A DNA stretch of 64,000 bases from an uncultured delta proteobacterium (GCA_963848135.1 CAWKCK010000017.1:995507-1059506), one strand, 5' to 3'. Positions 29,718 to 52,343 are shown, numbered from the stretch's first letter. Made by a program: numbers and translations. The notes: a model not told the origin generated them from the sequence alone.

Positions 29718-29733
29718 TGGCTCGTTGTTTGCT
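29718..29733 (+). promoter_or_regulatory. Sigma-54 -24/-12 promoter
   Basis: TGGCTCGTTGTTTGCT. Confidence 0.7.
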
Positions 29734-29832
29734 AACTTCTGCTCAATAAACGCCGGGCAATACAATGAACCTGAACGGCAAAGTATTGATCGGACGAGAC
29801 GGCAAACTTCTCAAATTTATGGACATCATTCC

Positions 29833-35203: not shown

Positions 35204-36058
35204 ATGAACCCGCAGGATTGGTTAACCGGCTTTATAGCCAACAAGTTGTTGAGCACAACGATTTTGATTGTCGCCGTTCTGATGATCCGAAAATATGTCG
35301 TTCATTGGATTAAGGGCAAAGAGACGTTTCTTCCGACATTCAAACGGCAGTGGATCGTGAGTGTCCGCAATATAACCATCTTTCTGATATTCGGAATAAT
35401 GGTTGTGGTATGGCTGGAGCAGTTGCGTACCATTGCCGCCTCCATTGTAGTCATTGCCGCAGCAATCGTCATTGCTACAAAAGAGTTTTTGCTGAATGTG
35501 GTTGGTTTTTTTTATCGCACAACGGCCAAGTTCGTGAGCGTCGGCGACCGCATTGAAGTGGATGGCATTCGGGGAGACGTGATTGACCAGAGTTTAATGG
35601 GCATCACGCTGCTGGAGATCGGCCCCGGAGATAAGACCCATCAATACACCGGACTTTCTATTTTCTTGCCTAATAGCCTGTTTCTCTCTGAGACCGTAAA
35701 AAATGAGACGTTTTTATGGAGTGATTAAGTCTTCCATTTGATGACTATTTCGATCAAGGCTGACGAGCAATGGTCAAAAGCTGAGGATGCCTTTCTGCAA
35801 GCCGCAAGGGATGTCAGCGCCCCTTACCTTGATAAAGCGCGGCAGGTTATGAAGACACAGGCACTGCAGCAAAACCTCGAGGAACCGAGTGTCGAACCTC
35901 GCGTACAGATCCAGATCGCCGACCCTGAGAAATACCATCTGGTCTTACGGGTACCTGTTCCGGCGCGCAAACGAGCCCGACTGGAGCAGGATATAACTCG
36001 CCACTACCTAAAACTCATGGGAACCGCAGAGAAGGACCCGCCAGAATCGAAACCTTAA
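35204..36058 (+). pseudogene. MscS-family mechanosensitive channel split by one in-frame TAA
   Basis: VGDRIEVDGIRGDVID..PNS; TAA at 35726-35728; ORF 35738-36058 is in the same frame. Confidence 0.8.
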
Positions 36059-36128
36059 GAAGAAAACGAATGGTCACCGCCAGATGTTGGTCGGTGCCCG
36101 CTAACCGACTGCGCAGAGGAACATTTGA

Positions 36129-37439
36129 ATGAGTGATCATACGATTTTTATACCCTTGATCGTCAAGTTTTTTGAACAGGATATTTCGGCTGCATCACAT
36201 ATCCTTGAAAGCATGAAAGAAGCGGAGGCTGCCGGTGTACTTGAATCGTTGCCGCCGTCCCTTGCCGTTCGTGTTGTCAAGCATCTTCAAATCAGCTTTG
36301 CAGCCACCTTGTTGAACCATACCGGTGACGCCTTCCTGCACCGGATTACATCGCAGCTTGAACCCCAGTTTTTAGCATCCATCCTGATGCATATATCCAA
36401 AGAATCCCGTGAGCGCATCAGGACACATATTCCCGAAAAAACCGAGGGGCAGATCCGGGAGCTTCTGGAGTATCCCCAGGGCAGTGTCGGCCGCATCATG
36501 ACGTCCGACTTTCTGTCTTTCAGCAAAGACGCACTTGCCAAAGAAGCGATCAGCAAAATCCGATCGCTGGCCAAAAAACGGATTCCATCGTCATATGCCT
36601 ATGTGGTCGATACCGACCTGCATCTAGTCGGTGTATTGAACATGCGCGATTTAATGATTGCATCACCGCAGCAACCGCTCGAGTCAATTACCCAGAAAGA
36701 GGTATTTTCGCTGCATTGTTTTACAGACATGCAGGACGCGGCCAATGAATTGTCCAAGCGGCGTTATTTTGCCGCACCAGTGGTAGACAGTGAAAACCAT
36801 ATACTCGGCATAATCAAGGCGGAACGTTTGATTAAGGGTGTTCAGGATGGAACGGCACAGGACATCCAATTGATGTTCGGTGTGAGTGCAGATGAGCGTC
36901 CTTTCTCAAGCATTTTTTTCTCCCTCAAAAAACGACTCCTCTGGTTGAATGTCAATCTGGTTACTGCATTCATGGCCGCGTCCGTGGTGGCCTTATTTGA
37001 AGGCATCATTGCAAAAATAACTATTTTGGCAGTATTTCTTCCAGTAGTTGCTGGGCAGGGGGGCAATGCGGGTGCCCAATCGCTGGCGGTGGTCATGCGA
37101 GGGATCGTGATGCGTGAAATTCCCCCCAATAAACGATTCGCCTTAATCATGAAAGAGGGCAAGTTGGGCGCAATCAATGGTGCAATCATCGGCGTGATCA
37201 CCGCAATGGTGGCCTGGGTATGGGTGGGCAACCCCTACCTGGGGCTGGTAATCGGTTTAGGAATGCTGGTCAATCTGTTCTTTGCAGGATTATCGGGTGC
37301 TGCAATACCCCTCATAATGAAACGCATCGGTTTAGATCCGGCACAAAGTGCGAATATCATATTAACCACGATAACCGACATCATTGGCTTTTTTGCATTT
37401 TTGGGATTTGCAGTTATTTTCCAGAGCTATCTTGTGTAG
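36129..37439 (+). CDS. mgtE: Magnesium transporter MgtE
   Basis: CBS pair, KRLLWL..NL, GQGGNAGAQSL, GLDPAQSA..TTITD. Confidence 0.92.
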   Translation: MSDHTIFIPLIVKFFEQDISAASHILESMKEAEAAGVLESLPPSLAVRVVKHLQISFAATLLNHTGDAFLHRITSQLEPQFLASILMHISKESRERIRTHIPEKTEGQIRELLEYPQGSVGRIMTSDFLSFSKDALAKEAISKIRSLAKKRIPSSYAYVVDTDLHLVGVLNMRDLMIASPQQPLESITQKEVFSLHCFTDMQDAANELSKRRYFAAPVVDSENHILGIIKAERLIKGVQDGTAQDIQLMFGVSADERPFSSIFFSLKKRLLWLNVNLVTAFMAASVVALFEGIIAKITILAVFLPVVAGQGGNAGAQSLAVVMRGIVMREIPPNKRFALIMKEGKLGAINGAIIGVITAMVAWVWVGNPYLGLVIGLGMLVNLFFAGLSGAAIPLIMKRIGLDPAQSANIILTTITDIIGFFAFLGFAVIFQSYLV

Positions 37440-37786
37440 TCGATACCCCAATGAGTCAAGCAAACAATATAAGTCCGTTGATGTTTTGGTTTGGCTATCC
37501 TACGAAAACAAACCCCAGCGAAACCGTTGCTTACTCCAACAAAACACAACCTCTGACCGACTCACGCCTGCTGCTAATGTATTGCGGAAAAAACTGTCAT
37601 GGCGAAATTCCAGTCTGCTGCTATTGTCCAACACCTATCACTCGGCGCATTTCCTGGCGTGAAAATAGCCATACGGTATTGTGATATTTGGCATGATTTC
37701 ATGGGATTGCGCCTGTGGCATCTGCCATTTCTGCAAGAGCAAATAGCTTTAGTCCTTGTAATCTATCCTTCACTGGACCAGGTGTT

Positions 37787-38485
37787 TCACACGCACAGGT
37801 ATTTGTCGCGCACGTCCTCGTTGTCCCGAAGGTCCTCGCGGGTGCCGTGGTAGCGGATCGTCCCGTTGTCGATGACGTAGCCCCGATCGCTCAGGCGCAG
37901 GGCGACCTCCAGGTTCTGTTCGGCCAGCAGCACCGTCAGGCCGCCCTCCTTGAGCCGGAAGATCTGCTCTTCGAGCATGTTGACGATCAGTGGGGCGAGC
38001 CCCTCGGTCGGTTCGTCCAGCAGCAGAAAATCCGGGTTGGTCATCAGCGCACGGCCGATGGTCAGCATCTGCTGCTCACCGCCGCTGAGAAAACCGGCCC
38101 GCCGGTTGTCGATTTTTTCGAGTGCCGGGAAAAAAGCCGTAGACCCGCTCCTTGTTCCAACCACCCTCGTGATAGTTGCGTTCTGAAATCTCCAGGTTTT
38201 CCCCCACGGTCAGGTCGGCAAAGACGCGCCGGTCATCCGGAACGTACCCCATTCCCTGGCCGAACCATGAGATACGGTTTTTGTCCGGTACAGGGGATGC
38301 CCTTGAATTGGATCGTTCCCCGGCGCGGCGGGGTCAGCCCCATGATGCTGCGCATGGTCGTGCTTTTGCCGGCGCCGTTTCGGCCCAGCAGGCAGACGCA
38401 CTCGCCGGCGTCGACCTGCCAGGGAGACATCGAAGAGGATGTGGCTGAGGCCGTAATAGGTGTGGATCTTTTCTACACGGAGCAT
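37787..38485 (-). pseudogene. LivF-like ABC ATPase with several frameshifts
   Basis: MLRVEKIHTYYG, GRNGAGKST and LSGGEQQML...LDEPTEGLAP are spread over different frames. Confidence 0.8.
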
Positions 38486-39226
38486 TCGTCCGCACCTCCC
38501 AGATACGCCTCCCGCACCTGCCGGTTGTCTCTGACCGCTTCGGGTACGTCCTGAACCAGGGTGCTGCCCTGCTGCATGACCATGATCTGGGTGGCGATGG
38601 AAAACACCATGCCCATGTCGTGTTCGCAAAAAAGGATCGTCAGACCCCGTTCGCTTGGACAGCCGTTTCATGAGGGCGAGGGTCACCGCCGTCTCTTCAG
38701 GGGACATGCCGGCCGTGGGTTCGTCGAGAATCAGCAGTTCGGGACGGTTACCCAGGGCGATGGCGATTTCCAGAACCTTCTGGTCGCCGTGGGACAGGGA
38801 ACCGCTGGTCACATGCGCCTTTTCCAGCAGCCCGACACTGGCGAGAATCTCCTCGGGTCTCCTCGACGGCCATGAACCGGGCCGGCGCGAAACAGGTTGA
38901 GCGTCTTTTCCGCGCCGGGAGAGGACGGCGACCTGCACATTCTCGAAAACGCTCAGCCGGTTGAAGATGTTGACCACCTGGTAGGACCGGCTGATGCCTT
39001 TGCGGCAGATCTGGTGGGGCGCCAGCCCGGCGATGTTCTCTCCCTTGAAGAGGATGCTGCCCGCATCGGGGGCGAGTTGGCCGGTGATCAAGTGAAAGAG
39101 GGTGGTCTTGCCGGCACCGTTGGGGCCGATGACGGCCACGACCTCCCCGTCTCCGACCGTGAGGGAGGCTCCGGCCACGGCCATGAACCCGTCGAACGAT
39201 TTCTGCAGTTCATCGACGCGAAGCAT
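38473..39226 (-). pseudogene. LivG-like ABC ATPase with frameshifts
   Basis: IGPNGAGKTT, LSHGDQK, LDEPTAGM; the EHDM and EAYLGG segments lie in another frame. Confidence 0.8.
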
Positions 39227-40179
39227 CTAACCCTCCTTCGGAACCGATCGAGAGGCTGAGCCTTGTTGAGAAACAAGCCTAGGACGCCTTCGGGCAGAAA
39301 GAAAATCAGCAGCATGAGTACGATCCCCAGAACGAGCGTCCAGTATTCCGTGTAGATGCCGACGAAGGAACGCAGGGCCACGATGATGGCCGCTCCGAGC
39401 ATGGGCCCCAGGAAGATGAACCAGCCGCCCAGCAGGCACATGATGAGAATTTCCAGGGAAAGGGTCCAGAACATCAGATCCGGGAACACGGAGCCCTCCA
39501 CGGTGACGAACAGCGTCCCGGCCACGCCGGCGAAGAATGCGGCGATGATCTGTCCAACGAGCTGGTGGCGCTGGACATTGACACCCACCGCCGCGCAGCG
39601 CTCCGGGTTGTCACGGATGCCTTGGAAGGTGCGTCCGAAGGGCGAGTTGACGATCCGGTACATCATCAGCAGGCAGCCGGCGGTCACGATCAGGTTGAAA
39701 TAGTAGGCGTTGGTCGAGCCTTCCAGCAGGGCCGGGATCGGGATGCCGTGGATGCCGTCATCACCGCCGGTAAAACTGTACCAGCGGTAAACGATGGCCC
39801 AGACCAGCGAACCCAGTGAAATCTGCATCATGCCGAAGTAAAGCTTGGACAACCGGATGGTCAGTAATCCGAGCACCAGGCCGAGCAGGGCCGAACAGAT
39901 CGGAGCCAACAGGTATCCCAGCCAGGCCGGCAGGCCCGACTTGACCGCAAACAGGGCGAAGGCATAGGCGCCGAAGCCGTAAAAGACGGCATGATGAAAC
40001 TGGTACATGCCGCCGAAGCCGAGCACCAGATTGAGGCTGGTGGCCAGCAAGCCGGTGGCAAAAATCAGGGCCAGCAGATAGATGTAGAAGCGTGTCAGGA
40101 ACTGGGGCAGGATAAAGAGCAGCACCAGCAGGGCGATGCCGGCGATAAACAGGTTCTTGTTAAAGCGAACACCAGGCAC
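39227..40179 (-). CDS. LivM-like ABC permease (probable frameshift near the C-terminus)
   Basis: LNLVLGFGG, FTGGDDG, SPFGRTFQGIRDN, FLPEG. Confidence 0.8.
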
Positions 40180-40190
40180 GACCGATCCCC

Positions 40191-41088
40191 CTACCATGTC
40201 GATTTGAGAAGTCCTTTGGGGCGGAACAGCAGGACGATCACCACCGCCACATAGGGAAATACAATGGCGAACTGCGGCCACATCAGAATGCCGATGGAAT
40301 CGGTCAGGCCGAAGATCAGGGCGCCGAGCAGGGCACCCCAGATGTTGCCCAGTCCGCCGATAATGACGATCAGAAATGCCTCGATAATGATCGAATGATC
40401 CATGCCCTGGGTGATGTTCTGCGTGGGCGCGACCAGGGCCCCGCCCAGCCCAGCCAAGTAGCAGCCAATGACGAAGACGGCGGCGAATACCCAGCTCACG
40501 TTGATCCCGACGGCACCGACCATCTCACGGTCCACGGCAGCGGCCCGGGCGATCTTGCCGATCTTGGTCCGGTTGGTGAGGAACCACAGGCCAGCAGCAA
40601 CGACGGGCCCGACGATCAGCAGGAACAGATTATACCGGGGAAACGGCAGTCCCTTTGATCGAAAAGGACCCTTGTAGAAATTCGGGCGCCGTCAGGCTGC
40701 GGTAATCCGAACCCCAGATCAGCTTTACCAGATCCCCGAAGACCAAAGTCAAGGAGAAGGTGAAAAGCAGCAGCATGAGATGTTCGCGCTCGTACAGATG
40801 GCAGAACAGGCCGCGCTCGACGAGAAAGCTTATCAGCGCCACGACCAGCGGCGCCACGACCAGGGCGATAAAAAATCCGGCGGCACTCTGTCCGAAAACG
40901 GTGGCGACCGTGTAGGTCACAAAGGCGCCGATCATGTAGAGCGAGCCGTGGGCCACGTTGGGGATCCGCAACACCCCGAGAACCAGGCTGAGGCCTGAAG
41001 CCACGATAAACAGGATCGTCGTTCGGCTAAGGCCGACCAGGACCTGCTGCATCAGCGCCGAAAAGGTGACAGTAGCGGAAAATTCCAT
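40191..41088 (-). pseudogene. LivH-like ABC permease with frameshift near 40640
   Basis: ASGLSLVLG..NVAHG in one frame; IIGGLGNI..FRPKGL in another. Confidence 0.8.
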
Positions 41089-41199
41089 GCAGATCGCTAT
41101 CTCGGAATCTTGTGTTCCCGCAGACGAAAATGTGTGCGGGAACTGAATTTAATATTTTCGATGACGCAATACGCCTGATGGTGTTCATCCAGCAACGGG

Positions 41200-42408
41200 C
41201 TATTTACGTGATTCGGCAATCTCCTCACAGCTCGGCATCACCTCCTCGCCGGGAATCGTGACGATATCCGTGGCTATCAGAAAGTCATAGCCGGCCACCT
41301 TCTTGGTCACGCCCATGAACATGGGCAACGTTGTCTGATGGTCGCAGGCGCGCATGGTCACCGGACCGACGGGGCTATCCACGGTCAGTCCTTCGACCGC
41401 ATCGATGAACGCTTCGGTCTTGGCCTTGCCGGCTTTCAGGTAACCCTGGGAAATCAGCCTGGCAGCCAGCACGCCGTAGAGGGCACCCACGGCCGGTTCG
41501 CGGTTGTAGGCCTGTTTGAACTCAGCGACGAACTGTTTGTTGGCCTCGTTTTCCGGAAAGTAGAAGAAGTAGTTGGAGGTGCCGATGACGCCCTCGGGGC
41601 CGTCGAGCCCCAGGGGCTTCAGGGTGGACAATTCGGTAGCCGTGTGCATGAAAAAAGGCATTCGCTCGTTGAAACCGGTGGTCTTGGCCGCCTTTAGAAA
41701 GGGCACGCAGTCGCGCCCGCCCGTGGCGATGATGACCGCGTCAGGCTGGGCCGAGAGGATGGCCGTGATATAGGGCGTGAAGTCCGGTTCTCCCACCTTC
41801 CACCAGGACTGACCCAGCAGTTCCACGTCCGGACGCAGCTTTTTGAGGTTATCCCACACGCCGTCGGCCAAGGCATGGCCGTATTCATAATCGTCGCCGG
41901 CAATCCAATACTTCTTGTAGGGCCGCTTGGCCAGTCCCACGGCGCCGGCCTTGCCTGCCAGAGCGGTGTTTTCGGTGATGGAGAAGACATACCGATGGCC
42001 CTTGGCGCCGGTGATCTTGGCGCTCTTGGAAAAGGTCGCGAAAAAGGGGATTTTCTCCTTGGCGGCCAGATCGGAGACGGCCAGGGCCAGGGCGCTGTTG
42101 ATGGTGCCCATCAGGATATCCACATTCTCGCGGTAGATCAGTTCTTTGGCGGCCGACAGGCCGATATCGACCTTGAACTTGCTGTCCCGGGTGGTGAAGA
42201 CGATCTTGTGGCCCAGAACGCCGCCGGCGGCATTGATCTTGTCGACCTCCAGTTTGAAGGCATCTCTGACGTCGTTTGTGTATGTGGCCGGCGGACCGCT
42301 GTAACAGTCGACGATGCCGACCTTGATCTCCTTTGCCGCCTCGGCGGGAGCGGTGACCAGAACCAGGGCCATTGCCATAGCGACGCAAAACCAGGCAGAC
42401 GTTTTCAT
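41200..42408 (-). CDS. LivK-like periplasmic substrate-binding protein
   Basis: Signal peptide, INAAGGVLG, DYEYGH, MRACDHQ; GGAGG RBS before ATG 42408. Confidence 0.9.
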   Translation of the reverse strand: MKTSAWFCVAMAMALVLVTAPAEAAKEIKVGIVDCYSGPPATYTNDVRDAFKLEVDKINAAGGVLGHKIVFTTRDSKFKVDIGLSAAKELIYRENVDILMGTINSALALAVSDLAAKEKIPFFATFSKSAKITGAKGHRYVFSITENTALAGKAGAVGLAKRPYKKYWIAGDDYEYGHALADGVWDNLKKLRPDVELLGQSWWKVGEPDFTPYITAILSAQPDAVIIATGGRDCVPFLKAAKTTGFNERMPFFMHTATELSTLKPLGLDGPEGVIGTSNYFFYFPENEANKQFVAEFKQAYNREPAVGALYGVLAARLISQGYLKAGKAKTEAFIDAVEGLTVDSPVGPVTMRACDHQTTLPMFMGVTKKVAGYDFLIATDIVTIPGEEVMPSCEEIAESRK

Positions 42409-42682
42409 GTTGAACCTCCTCGTTGAAAGATTAGACAAAGAAAGACTGGGGCCGTGAACTGGATGGCAAGAAACAACGCATCTAAAATACCGCAAATCTG
42501 TTTTCAGTCAATGGAAAAAATACAGGCTCAATTCTCTACGATCACGACCAGCATCACGGCCCGGCGTGGGCCCCGGGAACCAGCGTGACTTCGATATCGG
42601 CGGTCTTGTTAGGTCCGGAATCGGTTTTTGATTTCAACGATTACTTCCCTCACCGGCTCAAATCAATTCTGGTGGCGGTTGA

Positions 42683-43024
42683 TCATCTCGGCACCCACAG
42701 AACCGTACGCGCTTTTTTTGTCATCTCTTTAGCCAGGTCTTCCACGGGGCCGTATTGCATGCATCCTGCCATGCAATGCTTCACGCAGGCAGGTTCAAGG
42801 CCCTGTTTTGTGCGGGGTTTGCACAGGATACACAGCTCCGTGGGAAAGGGAAGGTAGGTGAGGTAGTACTTTCCCTTGGGCAGTTTCTGGACGATCTCGT
42901 TGACACGGATGCCCCCCATTCCTGCAGGCCAGCCATATTCCTGGGCACAGGCTACCTGGCAGGTATGGCATCCGGTGCAGTATTCATAGTCGATCAGGAG
43001 GCCGAATTCATGCTTTTTAGCCAT
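42683..43024 (-). CDS. 4Fe-4S small (beta) subunit of the molybdoenzyme
   Basis: GLLIDYEYCTGCHTCQVAC, CILC, PACVKHC..GC. Confidence 0.9.
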   Translation of the reverse strand: MAKKHEFGLLIDYEYCTGCHTCQVACAQEYGWPAGMGGIRVNEIVQKLPKGKYYLTYLPFPTELCILCKPRTKQGLEPACVKHCMAGCMQYGPVEDLAKEMTKKARTVLWVPR

Positions 43025-45467
43025 GGGTCACCTCCTCGGGGCTGCATTTGTAGATCCTGCACATGGAATGTTTGATGGGGGCGCCCTGGCCGTCTTTCCC
43101 GTGGTGGTTCATGGGGATCAGTTGGTTGATGTTGGATTCCCACACCCCGAACAGGCTGGGTTCCGCCGCCTCCTTTTCCGGAAACCACCAGCCATGGGAT
43201 GCCATGATCATCCATTCAGGAACCACGGGCGTCAGTTTTGCCTTGTACCGGGCCCGCCCCATCCAGTTTTCTATCCACATCCACTCACCGTTGCCGATCC
43301 CGTGGCTGGCAGCGGTTTCCGGATGGATCTCCACCAGCGGATCAGGATCGATCTCCCTCAACCATGGGATATTGCGATGTTCCGAATGGAAGAATGCCGG
43401 CGACCGCCTTCCCGTGGAGAGAATCAGGGGATAATCTTTGGCCAGGTCAGGCCTGCTGACCGGTGTGAAGGGAGGCTCTTCGTGGTGGGGGACAGGCTCC
43501 AGGTCCCATTCTTCCCGGAGGGTGGAATAGAGTTCAAAAAGGCCTGTCTGGGTTCTGAAGCCCGGTTTCTTATCGGGCCGGAGCAGCCCCTTCTCATGAC
43601 GCCGGTACGGGCAGCTCGAACTCCCCTCGGGAGGATAGGCCCATCCCTTTTCCTGGAGTTCCTTGAAGGTCATACCCGAGGGTTTGAGAATATCATCATA
43701 CAGATCGTAGATGGTCTCATACTCGTACTCGGGATCAAACCGTTTGGCCAGTTCAAAATTGATTTCCACATCCGGGAGACATTCGTCCACGGTCATGGCT
43801 TTGTTGATGCTCTGGAGGGGAACCCACCAGCTCCTGAAGCTGTCTTTTTCAAGAAAGGTTCCCGCCGGAAGAACCACATCCGCATACTGGGTGGTGGGCG
43901 TGTGAAACAGGTCGACGGCAACCACGAAATCCAATTTTTCCAGGGCCTTTTTCCATCGTTTCGGGTCCATGCCCAGCCCCTGCATGATGCCGGCGGTCTG
44001 TATCCACATCCCTTTGATGGGGTAGGGCTTTTCAGTAAAGATCTGATCCAGGGTCATATCGGTCTGGCAGCGCCAGTAGAACTTGTTCAGGGGCATGAAC
44101 CGGTCGGCACCGATACGGGGTTTGTCCATCTCCTTGGTCTTGAGGCGGATGGGTCCGGTGGTGCCCGGCAGGGCGTAGGAGACCACATCAAAGGCAAACC
44201 GTGCAAATACGTTTCCGCCGGGGACATCCAGGTTTCCGGTCAGGGCCCACAGGGCGGTAATCCCGGTCACCAGGGGGGTGAGTGCGGGGGTCATGTCAAC
44301 GGCAACGCCCCAGTGTATGGACGCCGGTTTGCTTCTTGCGTATAGCTCTGCCGCCGCCCGGATATCCTTGGCCGGCACCCCGGTGATGGCTTCAACCCTG
44401 TCCAGGGGATAGGTGTCAACCTCCCGGCAGAATTCGTCCCATGCCGTGTGGCACCGGACGGTGTCACCGTTGGCCAGCACGACTTCCCATTGGCCGGACA
44501 GGGCCGGGCTGGCCTGGCTGTCCCGGTAGGCGATATCGGCCGTATCCCAGATGACCGGCCCGGCGTTTTTTGTATCCCATGCCGCAAAATTGCCATGGGA
44601 ACCCGTGTCGGCCAGGTCGTCTTCCCTGAGTAACTTGCCGGTGTCCTCCCGGATCAGATGGGCACCGTTGGTCCACCGCTCAAGGAACTGTTTATCGTAA
44701 AGGTCCTGGTTGATGATGACGTTAAGAAATCCCATGACCAGGGCGGAATCGGTTCCGGGTCTCAATCTCAGGTGGTGTTTTGACCGGGAGGCGAACCAGG
44801 ACAGTCTGGGATCAATGCAGATGATCTTGGTGCCTTTTTTCATGAGATCGACAATCCAGTGGCCGAACTGGTTGTCCGGGCACGTGGCATGGATGTTGTA
44901 GCCCCAGATAATCATGCACTCCGGGGACGTGTATCTCGGATCCTTATACCGGTCCGGGAACCACTGGGCGGCGTCAAAAACAGCAAAATCACCCTGGACG
45001 GTGATAACGGCGGAAAGGCGGGGCCCGTAACAGGCCTGGCCGGAAAGGCCGAACATGACGTTGGGGCTGCCATAGGCATAGGCCAGCATGCAGATCCAGG
45101 CATAAATATCCCGGCCTGTGCCCACATTGAACACCATGCTCTCCGGCCCGTGTTCCTCCCGGATTTTATTCATCCTTTCTTCAATCAGGTCAAAGGCCTC
45201 GGCCCAGGTGATACGCTGCCATTTGCCTTCACCGCGCTTGCCGGTGCGTTTGACCGGATACCTCAGCCGGTCCGGGTGATCGACATACTGGGTCATGGCA
45301 AGGGCCCTGGCGCACAGGCGTCCCTGGTTCATGGGATGGTCGGGATCTCCCTCGATCTTTACCAGTTTCCCGTCCTTAATGTGGGCCAGTACGCCGCAGC
45401 CGCCGTGACATCCGGGGCCGGGTGACCAAGTGGTTGTTTTGACGATGTGGCTTCCTTGATCGTTCAC
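43017..45467 (-). CDS. Bis-MGD molybdopterin oxidoreductase catalytic subunit (acetylene hydratase / catechol dehydroxylase-like)
   Basis: WSPGPGCHGGC..GRLCAR, HPDRLRYP, LRPGTDSAL, YADVVLPA, FHSEHR, HGWWFPE; no Tat signal; GGAGG plus GTG 45467. Confidence 0.9.
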   Translation of the reverse strand: MNDQGSHIVKTTTWSPGPGCHGGCGVLAHIKDGKLVKIEGDPDHPMNQGRLCARALAMTQYVDHPDRLRYPVKRTGKRGEGKWQRITWAEAFDLIEERMNKIREEHGPESMVFNVGTGRDIYAWICMLAYAYGSPNVMFGLSGQACYGPRLSAVITVQGDFAVFDAAQWFPDRYKDPRYTSPECMIIWGYNIHATCPDNQFGHWIVDLMKKGTKIICIDPRLSWFASRSKHHLRLRPGTDSALVMGFLNVIINQDLYDKQFLERWTNGAHLIREDTGKLLREDDLADTGSHGNFAAWDTKNAGPVIWDTADIAYRDSQASPALSGQWEVVLANGDTVRCHTAWDEFCREVDTYPLDRVEAITGVPAKDIRAAAELYARSKPASIHWGVAVDMTPALTPLVTGITALWALTGNLDVPGGNVFARFAFDVVSYALPGTTGPIRLKTKEMDKPRIGADRFMPLNKFYWRCQTDMTLDQIFTEKPYPIKGMWIQTAGIMQGLGMDPKRWKKALEKLDFVVAVDLFHTPTTQYADVVLPAGTFLEKDSFRSWWVPLQSINKAMTVDECLPDVEINFELAKRFDPEYEYETIYDLYDDILKPSGMTFKELQEKGWAYPPEGSSSCPYRRHEKGLLRPDKKPGFRTQTGLFELYSTLREEWDLEPVPHHEEPPFTPVSRPDLAKDYPLILSTGRRSPAFFHSEHRNIPWLREIDPDPLVEIHPETAASHGIGNGEWMWIENWMGRARYKAKLTPVVPEWMIMASHGWWFPEKEAAEPSLFGVWESNINQLIPMNHHGKDGQGAPIKHSMCRIYKCSPEEVTHG

Positions 45468-45525
45468 TGGAATTTCCTCCAGGCTGGGTGGGTGATACTC
45501 GATCAATACCAGGGCCGGATCATTT

Positions 45526-45576
45526 AGTCAATAAATGTATTATCAATAAATTGACATTAAATCTATTGATCAATGA
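45526..45576. promoter_or_regulatory. Divergent promoter / probable MarR operator
   Basis: TCAATAAAT twice, TCAATAAATTGA and ATTGATCAAT palindromes, TTGACA at 45551. Confidence 0.5.
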
Positions 45577-45634
45577 GCGCCATTGTAATATCGTCGCGCA
45601 AATTATTGTGAAAATTCAGACTCTGCTGAAAACC

Positions 45635-46102
45635 ATGAACGAGAAGACCAAGACAAACTATGTCAGTGACCTGACCTTTGATGAAAAGGTGATGATGGCG
45701 ATCGTCAGGGCTGCAGAAAATTTCAAGAGAGCGCATTCATCCATTTTCAAGAAACACGGACTCTCCTTCCCCCAGTACAATATTCTACGGGTCCTCGATG
45801 CATCTGAAAACGGCCGCAATAAAACCAGTGCTGTCAGCAGGATCATGCTGGTGCCCGGGGCCAACATGACAGGTCTTTCTAAGAGACTCGAAAAGAATGG
45901 GTTTATCCTGCGGACACGGGATCCCCAGGATGAACGGGTCACCCTGCTTGCCATTACCCGCAAAGGCAGGGATGCCCTGAAGATGATCGAAGATGAAAAA
46001 AACGAATCCATTGAAATCATCCTAAATGGATTTACCCAGGAGGAAAAACATGACCTCTTGGATAAGATCAAAAAACTGATCAAGTCAACCAGCGCTATAT
46101 AG
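45635..46102 (+). CDS. MarR-family transcriptional regulator
   Basis: GLSFPQYNILRVL, RLEKNGFILR..DPQDER..ITRKG. Confidence 0.92.
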   Translation: MNEKTKTNYVSDLTFDEKVMMAIVRAAENFKRAHSSIFKKHGLSFPQYNILRVLDASENGRNKTSAVSRIMLVPGANMTGLSKRLEKNGFILRTRDPQDERVTLLAITRKGRDALKMIEDEKNESIEIILNGFTQEEKHDLLDKIKKLIKSTSAI

Positions 46103-46183
46103 AAAAATCTGTCATTGTCCAAGAACTTCCCAAAAGCAACACAGGAAAATTGGTTAAACGGGAGCTTAAAAAGCAGGTAGTAT

Positions 46184-46255
46184 ATGACCCAGATTTTAGC
46201 AGATAGGCGGGACGTTGATTTTGTTCTACACGAGCAGTTTCAGGTCAGTGAATGA
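46184..46255 (+). pseudogene. 23-codon N-terminal remnant of an acyl-CoA dehydrogenase
   Basis: MTQILADRRDVDFVLHEQFQVSE* resembles acyl-CoA dehydrogenase N-termini. Confidence 0.6.
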
Positions 46256-46585
46256 TTTGGCCAATAGATTATAATAAAGGGTAGTTAGCAGGCAAGATTA
46301 CACTAACGTACCTGGCAATACCCTGATGTTGTGCTTACTGATATTAAGCGAAACTTTCAAAAACTCCGAAACCACAAGGGCCAACCACAACATATGGCAG
46401 TTGGCCTTTTTCAATTATTTTTATCTCAACTTTCGGTATTCATAGCCAAATTGTTTTTTGACAAGCCGACACACTGCAGAGCGGTGTCCATAACTGCATC
46501 AATAAAGGCCGATGCTGTTTTTTCACAGAAGTTGCAGAGATTTCTCAATTGATCGTTCGCCAGAATCAAAATTCGATAAAGTGCT

Positions 46586-47698
46586 TCACTGATTCTCTTC
46601 CCCATTTTTGAAAACTTCGAGAATCTCATAAAACGAATTTCTTCGCGCTGGTGTGAAACCGGCCCGGCGAATGATGGTCTTAACTTTTTCCAGGGTAGCG
46701 GTCGGCGTGTGTCCGGCCGTGCGCAGGACGTTCTCTTCGAGCAGCACCCCGCCGAAATCATCGGCGCCGGCCAGAAGGCCGAGCTGGCCTGCCGGCACAC
46801 TTTCGCTAAACCATGAGGATTGAATGTGGGCAAAGTTGTCGAGCATCAAGCGCGCCAGCGCAATAATGCGCACATAACGGGCCGGATGCGTCCGGGACGG
46901 CACCCGATGGCTAAGCAGAGAGTCTCCCGGTTTGAAAGACCAGGGAACAAAAGACGTGAATCCCCCGGTCCGGTCCTGCAGTTCACGCAGCTTAAATAAG
47001 TGCGCCACGATGTCTTCGTCGGTCTCAACATGACCGAACATCATGGTGGCAGTGGTACGAAAGCCGATGTGATGTGCTTTCTCACATACATCGAGCCACT
47101 CTTCTGTTGTTGCCTTTCTCTTGGCCACTTCTTTCCGGACACGTTCTGACAAGATCTCTGCCCCACCGCCGGGTATGGTCCGGATGCCCTCGTCGTAAAC
47201 CGCCCGGAGGATGTCTTCCACGGGCAATTTTTCCATCCGGGAAATGAACACATACTCGGCTGGACTGAAAGGGTGAATGTGGATCTGCGGGCACGCTGCC
47301 CGAATCGCCCGAATGTAGGCCAGCCAGTCCTGCAAGCCGACCGCGGGGTTGTGCCCCCCTTGCAGCAACACCGTCGTGGCACCACGGGCGTGTGAAGCCT
47401 TGACTCGTTCAGCCAGATCATCCGGGCTGAGGGTGTAGGCTTCCTCTTGCTGTGCCCGTCTGTAAAAGGCGCAAAAATCGCAACACGTCACACAGATGTT
47501 GGTGTAGTTGGGGTTGGTGTCGACCACGAAGGTCACCACCCGCTGGGGCTGATGACACCTACGCGCCTGGTGAGCCAGGCCCATCAGTTCGCCCATAGGC
47601 ATCCTTTTGAGCATTTCGAGGGCGTCGCTCCGCTCATACCGGATGATCTCGACCTTTTCGGCTGTGCGGCCAGGTTTATTATTCTGAAATGCTGACAT
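46586..47698 (-). CDS. mqnC: Cyclic dehypoxanthine futalosine synthase (radical SAM)
   Basis: NYTNICVTCCDFCAF, LLQGGHNP, TATMMFGHVET, HIQSSW, ENV. Confidence 0.88.
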   Translation of the reverse strand: MSAFQNNKPGRTAEKVEIIRYERSDALEMLKRMPMGELMGLAHQARRCHQPQRVVTFVVDTNPNYTNICVTCCDFCAFYRRAQQEEAYTLSPDDLAERVKASHARGATTVLLQGGHNPAVGLQDWLAYIRAIRAACPQIHIHPFSPAEYVFISRMEKLPVEDILRAVYDEGIRTIPGGGAEILSERVRKEVAKRKATTEEWLDVCEKAHHIGFRTTATMMFGHVETDEDIVAHLFKLRELQDRTGGFTSFVPWSFKPGDSLLSHRVPSRTHPARYVRIIALARLMLDNFAHIQSSWFSESVPAGQLGLLAGADDFGGVLLEENVLRTAGHTPTATLEKVKTIIRRAGFTPARRNSFYEILEVFKNGEENQ

Positions 47699-47710
47699 TG
47701 TTGATCCTTG

Positions 47711-48583
47711 CTATCTTGATGATAATCCAGGCGAACCCAATATGTTTGCATTCGCGGCCGGCAGAACCTCTGAATCGATTTCTGCCCAATAAGAACACGC
47801 CGCATCATCGTCGAAATACCGTTTGTACTCGCTGAGAAATTTCGACTGGCCGGATAGGTCCGATGCGTCGAGCGTCCGACGGATCACCTGGAAATAAGCC
47901 GATATTTCAGAAGCGGAAACACCAATGCGGCGGGCGGATTCAGGCACAGCCTGCTTGACGAGTGCCGGCTCGCGTCTCTGAAACTCTGCCAGCCATTTTT
48001 CGAGGGCCTGCCTGGCTGACGTCGGCGCATCTTTTCTGACAACCCAGCGGGCAAAGACAAACGGAAGGTGGTGAAAGCCATACCACTCGCTGGCAAGATC
48101 GGTGACATGGGCGGCATCGGCCGCTACACCGGCGGCTCTTATGTCGCGCATCCGCATCAGTGCGGCGTCCCCTATCAACAGTTCACCATTGGGACGTTCA
48201 TCCGTATTGGCCAACTTCGGCAGATTTTCAAAGCCGTTTCGATACCCGAGCACGAGGAAAAGCAGCCGGATACTCGAAGCCGATTCGGTTGTCAGACGAA
48301 CGCACGTCCTCGAATCCATCTCGGTCAGAGGCCGGTCTGTAAAAAACAGCACGCTCATGGATCGCTCGGCAGCGGCAATGCCGAATTTACCGAGGTAATC
48401 CGTTATATCGGCAACAGCCGCCAGCCCTCCCACAGGAACCGCCGCTGCGATCACGCGCTTATTACACAACGCCACGATGCTATCCCGGGGCACCAAGGGC
48501 ACAAAACGGCACCCGTCCGGAGGGCCCAACGCGCGGAAAGGAGCCATGTTGGTATAGGGAATCATGGCAACGGGATGGTTCAA
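47711..48583 (-). CDS. mqnA: Chorismate dehydratase
   Basis: IPYTNMAP, SMSVL, SASSIRL, LLIGDAAL, LPFVFARW; AAGGAG plus TTG overlapping the mqnE stop. Confidence 0.85.
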   Translation of the reverse strand: MNHPVAMIPYTNMAPFRALGPPDGCRFVPLVPRDSIVALCNKRVIAAAVPVGGLAAVADITDYLGKFGIAAAERSMSVLFFTDRPLTEMDSRTCVRLTTESASSIRLLFLVLGYRNGFENLPKLANTDERPNGELLIGDAALMRMRDIRAAGVAADAAHVTDLASEWYGFHHLPFVFARWVVRKDAPTSARQALEKWLAEFQRREPALVKQAVPESARRIGVSASEISAYFQVIRRTLDASDLSGQSKFLSEYKRYFDDDAACSYWAEIDSEVLPAANANILGSPGLSSR

Positions 48584-49749
48584 GGGTTCGGCTCCTTTTG
48601 CCGGGCTCGCTTGGGTGACGGTGGCTCCGATGGCGACACGACCGCAGTCCCGCCAGCAATTGTCTTTGGTTCGGCCGCCGAACACTGATTGAATTGCCCG
48701 TCACGTTCGACCGGTACGAACCCGGCAATGGAAACGGTTTCCACCATTCTTTCCCGGGCCAGACCGACCGGCGTCTGGGCACCGGCCAGATGGGCTATTT
48801 TCTCCTCGGAAATAGTGCCGTCCATGTCATCCGCTCCCCAACTCAACCCCGCCGTGGCAGTTTCAACACCGGCCATGGGCCAGTAAGATTTCAGATGCGG
48901 TACGTTGTCGATAACCAGACGGGAAATGGCCAGAACCGCGAGCGTCTCAAGGGGCGTCGGCCCTTCTTCGATGAAACGCTGACCGCCAGGTTGGAAAGCC
49001 AGCGGAATGAAACATGAAAACCCACCGGTGTCGTCCTGGGTGTCGCGCAGAATCAGCATATGTGCAATGCGCTCGGGCCAGTTTTCTCCGAAGCCGAAAA
49101 GCATGGTGGCATTGGTCGGTATGTCCATCTCGTGGGCCAACCGGTGAATTTTGATCCAGTCTTTCGGTCCGATTTTGTTTTTCCAATGCTGCTGCCACAG
49201 GCGATCGGAAAAAATTTCAGCCCCTCCGCCCGGCATGGCATCCATGCCGGCCGCCTTCAGTTCTGCCAGGATCTCTGCCTCACTTCTGCCGCTGGTGCGA
49301 GCAAAGTAATCAATTTCCACAGCCGTGTAAGCCTTGATGTAAAGATCAGGAAACCGCTTCCTCAGTTCGCGCACAAGGGCCAGGTTGCGCGCATACGGCC
49401 AAACGCGGTTTAATCCGCCCACGATGTGTACTTCGGTCGGCTGCAACCGTTCGACGTTGTCGAGGATTTCATTTTCTTCCATGACATAGGCATGGGGGGC
49501 TGTGGGGCTGGCGGCATAATTGCAGAATGTGCAATTCATGGCGCAGATGTTGGCCGGATTGACATGCATGTTGAATATGTAAGTTGCGCGGTCGCCAAAT
49601 CGCTGGCGACGGTTTGAAAGTGCAGCTGCACCAAGAGCATGCAGACTATCCGGTGTTATGGCTGCCGCCAGAGCCAGGGCTTCATTCCGTGACAGGCGCT
49701 CACAACAGGCCCCTTTTTCAATAGCTTTACTGAATAACGCGTTTTGCAT
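48580..49749 (-). CDS. mqnE: Aminodeoxyfutalosine synthase (radical SAM)
   Basis: NICAMNCTFC, EVHIVGG, KAYTAVEI, MPGGGAEIF, HLKSYW, EKIAHLAGA. Confidence 0.88.
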   Translation of the reverse strand: MQNALFSKAIEKGACCERLSRNEALALAAAITPDSLHALGAAALSNRRQRFGDRATYIFNMHVNPANICAMNCTFCNYAASPTAPHAYVMEENEILDNVERLQPTEVHIVGGLNRVWPYARNLALVRELRKRFPDLYIKAYTAVEIDYFARTSGRSEAEILAELKAAGMDAMPGGGAEIFSDRLWQQHWKNKIGPKDWIKIHRLAHEMDIPTNATMLFGFGENWPERIAHMLILRDTQDDTGGFSCFIPLAFQPGGQRFIEEGPTPLETLAVLAISRLVIDNVPHLKSYWPMAGVETATAGLSWGADDMDGTISEEKIAHLAGAQTPVGLARERMVETVSIAGFVPVERDGQFNQCSAAEPKTIAGGTAVVSPSEPPSPKRARQKEPNP

Positions 49750-50036
49750 CGTTTTAGTTCTCTCACCGCCGCTATTCATGCCGGCGTCTGTGATCTCCGC
49801 CCGCTGAAAGGGCAGCATCTGATAATTCCCCTGAGGGGCATGAACAATGTCTCTAACAGTATAAATCCGAAAATATAAGCACGAAATTTGAAACAAACCT
49901 AAATGTCAAAATAGCAGTGATCGGGAATTTATCACCGGCATCCTGCCCGCCGGATGATCATGCGGACTCAGTCTCAGGTCACGAACGTGGTATTTTTGTT
50001 TTTCACGTTTTGGACACTCGGTGAAAAGATTCCGAT

Positions 50037-50924
50037 TTAGAGATACCTCCCAAAGATGGGGATCAAGGCCGCAGCGGTACCCGCAATGATCGAGACCGGA
50101 AAAAACCGCGCACTTATGGGGATCATCGGCAGGTACATGGCACCCATTGACAATGCTGACACGGATAAAGCCAGCGCGGCAACCGGTCCGCCATCGGTTA
50201 AATAATAAACTGCCGCTGCGCAACAAAACGCAAGCACGTGGGAAATGCCGGCGATCCACAGGGCATCGGTGGCTCCGAACCGGGCCGGCAGGCTGTGAAC
50301 ACCGGTCTTCCGATCACTGTCAAGATCCATCAGGGCGTAAATAATGTCCGATCCACTGAGCCACCAGAAAACAAACAGGGCGAAAATGACAGCTTCTGGA
50401 GTGAAATTCGGGTGTCCGGCAGCCGCAACGAAAGCCCCCAAGGGCGCCATGGCCAGGCAAAGGCCGATTCCAAAGTGGCAAAACGCCGTAAAGCGCTTCA
50501 GCAGGGAATATCCCAATAGGGGGATCAGGGGCAGTGGCGACAGCACGAGGCACCAGCCGCCCAAAGCGGCACAGGCCGCCAGGTAAACCGCCAGCCCGGT
50601 AAAAGCGACAATTAAAGCCGTTGAAACCGTCAGGCGACCGTCGGGAAGTTCACGACCGGCAGTCCTGGGATTCAATGCATCGATCTTACGGTCAAAAATC
50701 CGGTTGAACGACATGCCAAAAATTCTGGCGCCAACGGCTGCCAGAAGTATCAGAAGCAACACCACCAGAGGGGGTGTCTGCCCCCGGGTGCCGATCCATG
50801 CCCCGGCAAAAACCAACGGTAGGCTGAAGGCCGTATGTTCGATTTTGGTAAACCGCAGGATATTCCGGGCAAGATTTGATGACGACGTCTCCATGCCGAG
50901 GGCGTCTGCGTCAGGATGTGGCAT
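50037..50924 (-). CDS. UbiA-family prenyltransferase of the futalosine pathway (MqnP-like)
   Basis: KIEHTAFSLP, FNRIFDRKIDALNPRT, DIIYALMD. Confidence 0.88.
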   Translation of the reverse strand: MPHPDADALGMETSSSNLARNILRFTKIEHTAFSLPLVFAGAWIGTRGQTPPLVVLLLILLAAVGARIFGMSFNRIFDRKIDALNPRTAGRELPDGRLTVSTALIVAFTGLAVYLAACAALGGWCLVLSPLPLIPLLGYSLLKRFTAFCHFGIGLCLAMAPLGAFVAAAGHPNFTPEAVIFALFVFWWLSGSDIIYALMDLDSDRKTGVHSLPARFGATDALWIAGISHVLAFCCAAAVYYLTDGGPVAALALSVSALSMGAMYLPMIPISARFFPVSIIAGTAAALIPIFGRYL

Positions 50925-51534
50925 AGCGCGATATCCCGTTGTTCAAATGCTCGGCGACAGCCTGGCTGACCATCGCCAAATTCTGATGAAGAGTGGTCCT
51001 CTCACCGTGGTCGGCCGTGTCGGTAATCCCTTTGATCATGTCCCAGGGTATACCGTAGAGTCGTGCGACCCGGGCCACAACCGCTCCCTCCATGTCCACC
51101 AGTTCACCCCAGGCCGCCAGTCGTCGGCGTTCGGCGGGGTCGAAAACCGGCTGTTCAACCGTTACCAGGCGAGCTGCCGGCAAATCCTGCCACAATTCGC
51201 CGGTACAGGGGATGGCATCCGCAGGGACACCGGGACCTGGCAGTTCTTCCAACACCGAAGAAATACGGCGAATATTTCCGGGTTCCAGGCCGATGTTGTC
51301 GACCAAGGTTCCGCAGACCCCCGCGTTCAGAATGCGGTCGCAATTATGTTCGCGGATCAACATCTGAGCCGCCAGTGCAGCCGACACTTTTCCCATTCCG
51401 CTGATAGTGATCAGAACGGGTGGTGTTCTGAGTTCATAGAGCGCAAACGGCTGGGCAGGAATCTCCTTTGCACCGGAGAGCACCAAATAGGGGCGGGCTT
51501 CCTGGATCGTGGCATAGAGAATCCCGATCGTCAT
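50911..51534 (-). CDS. MTA/SAH nucleosidase-family protein, probable (aminodeoxy)futalosine nucleosidase (MqnB role)
   Basis: SGMGKVSAA, NAGVCG, VDMEGA, KGITDTAD; inside the mqn cluster. Confidence 0.8.
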   Translation of the reverse strand: MTIGILYATIQEARPYLVLSGAKEIPAQPFALYELRTPPVLITISGMGKVSAALAAQMLIREHNCDRILNAGVCGTLVDNIGLEPGNIRRISSVLEELPGPGVPADAIPCTGELWQDLPAARLVTVEQPVFDPAERRRLAAWGELVDMEGAVVARVARLYGIPWDMIKGITDTADHGERTTLHQNLAMVSQAVAEHLNNGISRYATS

Positions 51535-52343
51535 ATAATTCCAGCCTCCTGGGCGCGTAGGGTCAGCATGTCGGCTGCCGCCCTTCCGGTTTTTCCAAGA
51601 TCGATGCTGAAGGGATTGACAAAAGTCTGTATGTGCTGTCGCAAAACCTCTTCCGAGAGTTCTTGGGCATGCTGTTGGATATACGGCAAAGCGGCTGCAG
51701 GTTCTTTTTGGGCCCGACGAATGCTGCGGCGGATCAAGGTCTCCATCTTGTGGATGAGATCGTTGCCGAGTTCCTTTTTTGCAGCGATGCATCCCAGGGG
51801 AATGGGTAAGCCGGTTTCCGACTCCCACCAGGCCCCCAGATCGACTATGGATGTGAAGCCGGCCTGCGCGTATGTGAATCGGCTTTCGTGAATGATCACC
51901 CCGCAGTCAGCCCTGTCGGCTGTAATTTCGGGGAGGATTCGATCGTAGGTCGTAAACGTTCTTTTATTTGCACCCGGCGCCCACAGGCGAAAAAGCAGGT
52001 GGGCAGTGGTCCATTCCCCCGGCAACACCACCCGGGCGTTTGCCACCTCAGTTCGCGTCAGGGGTCTTTTGGATACCAGCAGGGGTCCGCAACCATAACC
52101 CAGGGCCGCGCCGCTTGACAGCAACCGGTATCTCTGCCGAACCTTAATCCAGGCGTGAAAGGAAAGTTTGCTGATATCGAGTTCTGCGGCCATGGCCATG
52201 CGATTGAGGGTCTCAACGTCGTGAAGTTCCGTGACAATCTTAATCCCCGGAGGCTTCAGCTCGCCGCAGGCAATTCCGAAGAACATGAAGGTGTCGTTGG
52301 GACAAGGGGAATACCCCAAACGGATGGTATCGATGGGTGCCAT
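51531..52343 (-). CDS. mqnD: 1,4-dihydroxy-6-naphthoate synthase
   Basis: GYSPCPNDTF, DVETLN, IIHESRFTY, LPIPLG. Confidence 0.95.
   Translation of the reverse strand: MAPIDTIRLGYSPCPNDTFMFFGIACGELKPPGIKIVTELHDVETLNRMAMAAELDISKLSFHAWIKVRQRYRLLSSGAALGYGCGPLLVSKRPLTRTEVANARVVLPGEWTTAHLLFRLWAPGANKRTFTTYDRILPEITADRADCGVIIHESRFTYAQAGFTSIVDLGAWWESETGLPIPLGCIAAKKELGNDLIHKMETLIRRSIRRAQKEPAAALPYIQQHAQELSEEVLRQHIQTFVNPFSIDLGKTGRAAADMLTLRAQEAGII

Follow-up and report, generated by a model that had tools for sequence, protein, structure and literature searches.

In the 64,000-nucleotide stretch of DNA analysed here (the window; GCA_963848135.1 CAWKCK010000017.1:995507-1059506, from an uncultured delta proteobacterium, with positions counted from its first letter), a gene for a MarR-family regulator (marR) diverges from two overlapping genes, alpha and beta, for a predicted molybdenum or tungsten enzyme and its small iron–sulfur (Fe-S) partner. 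We lean, with limited confidence, towards reading marR/alpha-beta as a MarR-repressed operon for a soluble two-subunit oxidoreductase with the cofactor bis-MGD, or bis(molybdopterin guanine dinucleotide), carrying Mo or W, of the type represented by Cldh, Dodh and Gp Hcdh of Gordonibacter. That its reaction is a reductive dehydroxylation is an evenly balanced proposition; the family placement of alpha, near acetylene hydratase and with soluble Gordonibacter-type relatives, is, in our judgement, highly probable. The best-matching metagenome-assembled genomes (MAGs) are named Desulfobacteraceae or Desulfosarcina, in agreement with the deltaproteobacterial host suggested in an earlier note on this DNA.

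The alpha gene (43017..45467, minus strand) encodes a cytoplasmic bis-MGD catalytic subunit of 816 amino acids (aa). Its open reading frame (ORF) stays open to a TTG codon at 45506 (43017..45506, minus strand); the GTG at 45467 is the likeliest start, because a ribosome-binding site (GGAGGA) stands 8 nt ahead of it and because the closest relatives in the database are likewise 816 aa long, with alignments that span 100% of the protein. Three Pfam domains follow one another in the order usual for the superfamily, namely Molybdop_Fe4S4 (E 2e-15), Molybdopterin (E 2.3e-34) and Molydop_binding (E 1.4e-17). Alpha is a member of the dimethyl sulfoxide (DMSO) reductase (MopB, bis-MGD) superfamily and is predicted to bind Mo- or W-bis-MGD. 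Upon translation, a twin-arginine (Tat) motif is found at neither of the two possible N-termini. The AlphaFold2 (AF2) model of alpha reaches a predicted local distance difference test score (pLDDT) of 91.6, and the ratio of non-synonymous to synonymous substitution rates (dN/dS) is about 0.15, which indicates that the gene is under purifying selection.

At the N-terminus, the sequence TTTWSPGPGCHGGCG is of the three-Cys W-S-x-P-G-C-H type; the FS0 motif C-H-G-G-C ... G-R-L-C (45312..45410, minus strand) follows the stretch T-T-T-W-S-P-G-P-G. The Fe-S domain holds just three Cys residues, C20, C24 and C52 in the 816-residue numbering, with none other before residue 126. Among 173 family sequences, which are 66–97% identical, C20, H21 and C24 are kept in 170 (the remaining three are gapped there), and C52 is invariant together with C146, C196 and C803 (173/173 each). 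In a HMMER alignment to acetylene hydratase, C-H-G-G-C pairs with C-D-I-N-C, so that the first cluster Cys is missing and a His replaces the Asp beside the second Cys. The Cys of GQACY (Cys146; codon at 45030..45032, minus strand), the predicted position of the Mo or W ligand, pairs with the Cys of Y-M-C-I-G. The latter we take to be the tungsten ligand Cys141 of acetylene hydratase, and the Asp of C-D-I-N-C to be Asp13. Arg54, the basic residue behind the last cluster Cys, is retained and matches in the alignment a Lys position of acetylene hydratase that presumably has a role there. The earlier description of alpha as a bis-MGD enzyme without Tat signal, with the first cluster Cys missing and a Cys at the metal-ligand position, is thus borne out by Pfam, translation and alignment.

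Two further traits mark the family. An insertion of 74 aa (residues 269–342; 44442..44663, minus strand), modelled by AF2 mostly as beta strands at high confidence, is present in all 14 family rows of our alignment A1 and in none of its 17 relatives with an “xSxPGCH” motif, including the Gordonibacter protein P0275; two representatives of the four-Cys outgroup (P0137 and P0153) have a related insert. The second trait is Cys196 (codon at 44880-44882, minus strand), which, beyond the 173 family sequences, is found in the nearest outgroup P0121, while the position is taken by Asn or Ser in the other three-Cys relatives. It aligns beside the position of acetylene hydratase Trp179, which we take to be a pocket residue. 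Cys196 was also considered as the missing fourth cluster ligand; given this alignment position and the Asn in other three-Cys relatives, that candidate was rejected.

The beta gene (42683..43024, minus strand; Pfam Fer4_11) overlaps the alpha stop by 8 nt at its start and encodes a ferredoxin-like subunit of 113 aa. Its eight invariant Cys residues, in the layout CxxCxxCxxxC...CxxCx11CxxxC, are enough for two [4Fe-4S] clusters, which beta is predicted to bind; the protein resembles PcrB, FdhB and DmsB, beta subunits with four clusters, in their first and their last cluster-binding segment. Beta directly follows alpha in 56/56 related loci, counted as those containing the 3' end of alpha plus at least 345 nt beyond. 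Pfam scans of the window revealed no NrfD- or DmsC-type membrane anchor, which confirms the 113-aa, anchorless beta subunit reported previously. In NCBIfam, an equivalog was found for neither alpha nor beta, nor for the neighbour genes of the related loci.

According to a 2020 eLife paper (PMC7028382), catechol dehydroxylases form a bis-MGD group beside acetylene hydratase and come in two architectures: Dadh, Hcdh and Cadh of Eggerthella lenta carry a Tat signal and are accompanied by a 4Fe-4S subunit and a membrane anchor, while Dodh and similar Gordonibacter enzymes are smaller, lack the Tat signal, pair with a small 4Fe-4S protein and probably are soluble. The alignment in that paper gives ...T-M-W-S-G-P-G-C-H-E-G-C...N-Q-G-R-L-C for Cldh, ...V-W-T-G-P-G-C-H-N-G-C-G for Dodh, and C-C-R-G-C-G-K-M-E-C behind the Tat signal for Dadh, Hcdh and Cadh. 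Gp Hcdh, a Tat-less two-subunit enzyme of 770 aa, was purified as a hydrocaffeate dehydroxylase, whereas Hcdh of E. lenta has 1193 aa (PMC11585353). The same source gives the accessions WP_114568826.1 for Cldh, WP_041239388.1 for Dodh, WP_035577003.1 for Hcdh, WP_086414988.1 for Dadh and WP_114556713.1 for Cadh. Compared with these sources, alpha shares with Cldh (also (-)-Eddh), Dodh and Gp Hcdh a size of about 770–830 aa, the bis-MGD assignment and the lack of a Tat signal; alpha-beta shares with them the adjacent small Fe-S protein and the absence of a membrane anchor. Common to alpha, Cldh and Dodh is also the motif T-x-W-S/T-x-P-G-C-H-x-G-C ... N-Q-G-R-L-C with only three Cys residues. 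With the Eggerthella enzymes alpha has the superfamily and the published catechol dehydroxylase grouping in common, but their Tat signal, CCRGC-GKMEC motif, four-cluster Fe-S subunit, anchor and length of about 1190 aa have no counterpart at the window locus. The likeness to catechol dehydroxylases proposed in the earlier note, therefore, stands for the Gordonibacter type (WSGPGCH in Cldh, WTGPGCH in Dodh, Tat-less, two subunits) and falls for the Eggerthella type (Tat signal, other motif, anchor). Lack of the first Cys typifies the published subgroup and is no peculiarity of the window gene.

An environmental, catabolic comparison is offered by a homologue from the 3,5-dihydroxybenzoate cluster of Thauera aromatica AR-1, mutants of which grow poorly on 3,5-dihydroxybenzoate (PMC7028382). 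It shares C-H-G-G-C-G ... G-D-P-D-S-P ... R-G-R-L-C with alpha; however, it keeps the first Cys (CRSCHGGCG) and falls, thus, outside the three-Cys loop-insertion clade to which the window protein belongs. The Figure 7 data of the same paper also hold an entry “Desulfobacula toluolica Tol2” with T-W-S-A-G-P-G-C-H-G-G-C-G-V-L-A-H-I-K. This homologue has the same N-terminal type as the window protein (TWSAGPGCH-GGCGVLAHIK...GDPDHP-WNQGR) and is on that ground taken as its orthologue. It is listed as leaf 19, between Gordonibacter leaves, with acetylene hydratase at leaf 140, and would sit among the Gordonibacter proteins if the leaf order may be read as the tree order; it figures there as uncharacterised, from a genus that degrades aromatics, and the accessible text describes no operon, beta subunit, regulator or substrate for it. 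With a D. toluolica orthologue already in the published dehydroxylase tree, the window enzyme is not a new class. Full-text literature searches found no published function assignment for the Desulfobacterales clade.

Searches of structures and of large protein sets agree with this placement. Acetylene hydratase (Pelobacter acetylenicus, PDB 2e7z) is the best solved match to alpha both by sequence (E 7.5e-79, 268.5 bits, with polysulfide reductase second at 179 bits) and by fold (E 2.8e-55, template modelling (TM) score 0.85 on the target, 26% identity, using the AF2 model, which matched 179 PDB chains at E <= 0.001); the relationship to the acetylene hydratase clade claimed in the earlier note is well founded. 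Pyrogallol-phloroglucinol transhydroxylase is absent among the 52 PDB sequences matched at E <= 1e-5 and among the fold matches listed. A scan of 1.84 billion representatives returned 1712 proteins at E <= 1e-30, in which more than 150 representative clusters outscore the acetylene hydratase level. At the 50% level, the whole orthologue group collapses to a single cluster, in keeping with a tight Desulfobacterales clade (66–97% identity); among the matches listed, at least 120 are all at least 70% identical to alpha, and 69 genome loci were found. Cultured carriers are Desulfobacula toluolica Tol2 and Desulfonema magnum (P0106).

Phylogenetic reconstruction was based on a FastTree analysis of 143 rows (16 family rows and 127 representatives) and on an IQ-TREE analysis of 46 chosen rows, the latter from an unfinished “quick” run. 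In the FastTree phylogeny, a clade of 36 rows, all with the x-S-x-P-G-C-H loop replacing CxxC, has a support of 1.0, the family one of 0.998, and the family together with P0121 one of 0.991; in IQ-TREE, all three groupings obtain 100 in the Shimodaira–Hasegawa-like approximate likelihood ratio test (SH-aLRT). The family, P0121 and relatives named for Coriobacteriia or Firmicutes come together in one clade (1.0 in FastTree, 100 SH-aLRT in IQ-TREE), which also contains the uncharacterised Gordonibacter sp. 28C paralogue P0275. The latter is approximately 33–41% identical to the window alpha and matches it with 518.6 bits, about twice the acetylene hydratase score. For P0142, which belongs to the sister group, the relatives with names come from Gordonibacter sp. 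28C (66%), Raoultibacter, Enterorhabdus, Coriobacteriales MAGs, Peptococcaceae and Dehalobacter.

The marR gene (45635-46102, plus strand; Pfam MarR) encodes a protein of 155 aa and is separated from alpha by a 167-nt spacer. This spacer contains an inverted repeat (45528-45547/45550-45569) and a candidate operator array (45525..45575, without strand; from a motif search) composed of two copies of YTTATTGAYWA, 15 bp apart, a perfect core palindrome TCAATAAATTGA at 45543-45554, and ATTGATCAAT at 45565-45574. A promoter-like sequence matching the consensus only (TTGATA-16-AATGAT, minus strand, 45546..45519) overlaps the repeats. The divergent MarR and the palindromic operator described in the earlier note were, thus, both recovered. 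YTTATTGAYWA occurs at three sites in the 64 kb against 0.28 expected, and 0/100 shuffles gave three. It is found anywhere in 25/69 related loci and within 320 nt upstream of alpha in 19/69, with constant orientation and frequently as a 15-bp-spaced pair; the motif is retained even where MarR is just 39–44% identical to the window MarR. A divergent MarR is present in 16/69 loci according to tblastn, and in 19 loci plus the window according to ORF clustering. With its winged-helix MarR domain, the 155-aa protein is probably a repressor of the MarR family; its predicted binding sites are the (pseudo)palindromes in the divergent promoter region of marR itself.

A third site resembling the operator, TGAATTTATTGATAA (28835-28849, minus strand), lies in a spacer of low GC content that separates a sigma-54 activator gene (27339-28733) from a gene for a Cache sensor kinase (29725-31554). 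Either MarR has a second target there or the match is due to chance.

The gene neighbourhoods of the related loci differ between subclades. In Desulfobacula and Desulfotignum loci, where alpha is 80–84% identical, the operon is extended by catabolic genes for an Fe-S flavoenzyme of the old yellow enzyme/FAD (OYE/FAD) family (enoate-reductase, BaiCD or BilR type), an acyl-coenzyme A (CoA) ligase, a long acyl-CoA dehydrogenase, the tripartite ATP-independent periplasmic (TRAP) transporter DctPQM and a 3-hydroxyacyl-CoA dehydrogenase—in L004 a dehydrogenase/hydratase fusion and a thiolase are present instead—with a 4HBT thioesterase upstream. This gene set would fit the side-chain beta-oxidation of a phenylpropanoid-like acid. 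Because of the CoA-ligase, beta-oxidation and ene-reductase context in these relatives, our best guess at the substrate class is a hydroxylated phenylpropanoid-type acid. A third group, with alpha 66–67% identical, has IclR regulators and alpha-beta pairs in tandem; genes for aconitase, malic enzyme, a sigma-54 activator, a cytochrome c3 and a sensor kinase lie close by. Aminotransferase genes adjoin alpha-beta in four loci (L029, L031, L039 and L040). A Liv gene cluster follows alpha-beta in 10/69 loci, including L029 and L031; as alpha is just 76–77% identical in these two, the Liv linkage appears to be older than the window lineage. The varied neighbourhoods suggest that the conserved core consists of alpha-beta and a small-molecule regulator, whereas transport and downstream genes have been swapped between lineages.

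Tandem alpha-beta pairs are carried by the Desulfobacula loci L042, L046, L047, L049, L052 and L053, in which the second beta is 53% identical to that of the window. An IclR-type gene precedes the pair in L042, L049, L052 and L053, and aconitase and malic-enzyme genes lie upstream in L042, L046, L047, L049 and L052.

On these grounds, the following course of events may be proposed for the operon. A low-potential donor would reduce the two [4Fe-4S] clusters of beta, from which electrons would pass via the three-Cys FS0 cluster of alpha to the Cys146-ligated metal. There, an aromatic acid of the catechol type, or a phenolic compound akin to it, would lose a ring hydroxyl, with His21, at the position of the catalytic Asp of acetylene hydratase, as the putative proton donor. 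The less hydroxylated aromatic product would then be degraded by a CoA-dependent route. MarR may be released from the TTATTGA repeats overlapping the predicted alpha promoter when it binds the substrate or a ligand related to it, and uptake would be linked to the system through a Liv-type ATP-binding cassette (ABC) importer in the window lineage and through TRAP transporters in relatives. In a sulfate-reducer lineage, such a reaction would feed catabolism, in contrast to the gut polyphenol respiration of Gordonibacter.

The importer itself has a peculiar state of preservation. The earlier note had counted a livKHMGF importer as part of the system at 42683..46255; the five genes of this LIV-I type (HAAT) set are all present according to Pfam, but they lie outside that span, at 37787-42408, and four of the five are frameshifted. 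The reference for this assessment was the set of proteins from a 96%-related locus (L025), which were mapped onto the window; the livHMGF genes are single ORFs in both L025 and L003. Only livK (41200..42408, minus strand; Peripla_BP_6, E 5.4e-77), for a periplasmic binding protein with a signal peptide, is intact, with 416 residues in a single frame and 91% identity to its L025 orthologue. The permease gene livH (40191..41088) falls into two frames, with the shift at a GGG run near 40651-40685; livM (39088..40281), the other permease gene, is shifted about ten codons ahead of its normal stop and continues past the frameshift for 138 nt into livG. Of the ATPase genes, livG (38473..39226) has a frameshift near 38645-38652, and livF (37787..38485) has two, at about 38418-38450 (GG site) and near 38140 (T6 run); all four genes are on the minus strand. 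This amounts to five frameshifts across livHMGF in 3.4 kb; three of the sites coincide with short runs of G or T, where errors of sequencing or consensus also tend to lie. Outside liv, with 80% of the window covered by ORFs of 110 aa or longer, no convincing frameshift was seen in the remaining 60 kb or so, with a pqiA and a CitMHS gene as possible exceptions. The importer may, therefore, be defunct here, or it may be mis-assembled.

A promoter-like sequence (TTGACT-16-TATTTT, 42484-42511, minus strand; a consensus match only) lies ahead of livK, so that liv transcription may be separate from that of alpha-beta.

Between beta and livK, synonymous divergence (dS) jumps, with the boundary in the spacer at 42496-42682. 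Against five related loci, dS is 0.10–0.30 for marR, alpha and beta, compared to 0.51–1.48 for livK and 0.73–1.54 for the C-terminal part of livH; it is 4–10 times lower in marR-alpha-beta than in the liv genes, and DNA identity is 93–96% versus 75–88% on the liv side. An out-of-frame row for LivM was left out of the dS comparison. The flanking genes of the window are common to none of the related loci. These observations suggest either that lineages have recently exchanged a marR-alpha-beta cassette or that the assembly is chimeric. Flanking direct repeats were not found, and there are no tRNA genes in the window. An Rfam search of 36000-48000 yielded nothing, hence no molybdenum cofactor (Moco) riboswitch.

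Several observations weigh against a Gordonibacter-type dehydroxylase. The nearest outgroup (P0121) is just 49% identical to alpha, and the 74-aa insertion and Cys196 (the latter common only to P0121) are found in the window clade but not in the Gordonibacter-type relatives compared; specificity or chemistry may, for these reasons, differ from the Gordonibacter enzymes. Of these enzymes, the trees contain the uncharacterised paralogue of strain 28C only, with the characterised Cldh, Dodh and Gp Hcdh left out. The regulator is MarR (IclR in some relatives) and the transporter Liv-ABC or TRAP, while the Gordonibacter enzymes have membrane regulators of the LuxR type and transporters of the major facilitator superfamily (MFS). 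Neighbour sets vary by subclade (IclR, aconitase and malic enzyme versus aminotransferases), aromatic-degradation genes are absent from the window, and the importer genes in it are frameshifted. The 26 NCBIfam models that match alpha all stay below cutoff (best PhsA, 273 vs 694 bits). Against PDB binding proteins that we take to be benzoate-derivative binders, LivK scores no better than against urea or Leu/Ile/Val binders. For both LivK and MarR, comparison with PDB and NCBIfam gave generic family similarity only, with nothing discriminating for aromatic-acid binders, and the notion that these two proteins recognise aromatic acids found no support.

Alternatively, the enzyme could be a member of the same family that catalyses another redox reaction, be it a water-dependent hydroxylation or dehydrogenation or the reduction of a non-catechol organic substrate, e.g., an amino-acid-derived, alicyclic or heterocyclic acid, with beta exchanging electrons with a soluble partner. 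This we regard as rather unlikely. It would be in keeping with the private insertion, with Cys196 beside a pocket position and shared by P0121 alone, with the distance to the nearest outgroup (only 49% identity), with the aminotransferases in L029, L031, L039 and L040 and an importer of the amino-acid (Liv) family in 10/69 loci, and with the statement in PMC7028382 that most homologues are uncharacterised and clade activities hard to assign. However, the three-Cys, Tat-less, two-subunit members characterised in the literature found are all catechol dehydroxylases, and an aryl-alkanoate suits the CoA-ligase and beta-oxidation genes of the Desulfobacula and Desulfotignum loci. An unlikely variant, to which we give slightly less credence, takes the Desulfobacterales clade to be more than one further catechol dehydroxylase, an enzyme of its own among the soluble three-Cys proteins that is set off by the insertion and by Cys196 (otherwise in P0121 only), with a substrate class new to the family and a cassette recently spread by horizontal transfer; an amino-acid-like compound or a non-catechol phenolic might serve as the substrate, an idea prompted by the adjoining Liv-type importers and aminotransferases. 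That the locus is a decaying remnant in this genome, its importer dead and alpha-beta disused, is improbable: five livHMGF frameshifts in 3.4 kb, with none convincing in the other 60 kb, speak for it, but alpha, beta, marR and livK are intact and 92–97% identical to relatives, with dN/dS at the low value given above, three frameshift sites look error-like in their short G or T runs, and the liv region is more variable between strains, favouring assembly artefacts.

Chemistries remote from organic redox catalysis fare worse. A cytoplasmic reductase of an inorganic compound or a small S- or N-oxide, e.g., of the polysulfide, thiosulfate or DMSO type, is very improbable; the best NCBIfam scores do come from PhsA, type-II DMSO reductase and formate dehydrogenase models, and polysulfide reductase is the second-best solved sequence match, but the NCBIfam scores are far under the family cutoffs, alpha has neither a Tat signal nor a membrane anchor, the tree groups the clade with soluble Coriobacteriia paralogues, and the surrounding genes code for transporters of organic acids, for CoA ligases and for regulators of the MarR or IclR type. 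The hydration function entertained in the earlier note—hydration of acetylene or a different unsaturated compound without redox chemistry, as by acetylene hydratase—is the reading to which we give the least credence, since the catalytic Asp position is an invariant His and a redox partner is always present. It draws on acetylene hydratase being the closest solved structure and on the conserved Cys metal-ligand position; an N-terminal cluster domain is a further trait common to the two enzymes. Yet acetylene hydratase has the four-Cys CxxCxxxC with Asp after the second Cys, where alpha has three cluster Cys and a His; it lacks the 74-aa insertion (query residues 288–355 are unaligned); and more than 150 representative clusters stand above its score. 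Its Ile142 and Trp179, which we take to be ring residues, correspond to Tyr and Pro in the alignment of alpha. Acetylene hydratase, presumably a monomer with no electron-transfer partner, also lacks a partner subunit, whereas alpha always has beta adjacent, i.e., a dedicated two-cluster ferredoxin gene in 56/56 loci.

Futalosine-type menaquinone genes lie right beside marR (46586-51828), comprising, by Pfam-type family match, two CofH/MqnC-like radical SAM genes (46586-47698 and 48580-49896), a VitK2_biosynth (MqnA-like) gene (47711-48685), a UbiA prenyltransferase gene (50037-50924) and a PNP_UDP_1 phosphorylase-family gene (50911-51828). Two transporter fusions are unusual: at 20215-21848 (minus strand), a CitMHS-type transporter is apparently divided between two ORFs that overlap, its halves being separated by a PAS domain, and a CitMHS/Na-sulfate symporter at 31541-33607 (plus strand) carries an N-terminal response-regulator receiver domain. 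At 17162-18293 (plus strand), a pqiA-like ORF of 202 aa is followed, with a 158-nt overlap and in another frame, by an ORF of 226 aa without family match; this pair may be another frameshift.

What is new in this locus is the conserved operon core with its operator, the clade-specific insertion together with Cys196, and the varied catabolic contexts, as well as the broken importer in the window and the dS step at the beta/livK boundary. For the subgroup as a whole, the three-Cys FS0 cluster poses a bioinorganic question. To our knowledge, catechol dehydroxylases have been characterised in gut Coriobacteriia only; if the Gordonibacter-type reading is true, alpha would provide a genetic marker by which to trace the anaerobic dehydroxylation of polyphenols beyond the gut. 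The orthologue group is widespread in Desulfobacterales MAGs, so that its function could bear on the breakdown of lignin-, tannin- or catecholamine-derived phenolics in sulfate-reducing sediments and, given cultured carriers such as D. toluolica Tol2 and Desulfonema magnum, is directly testable.

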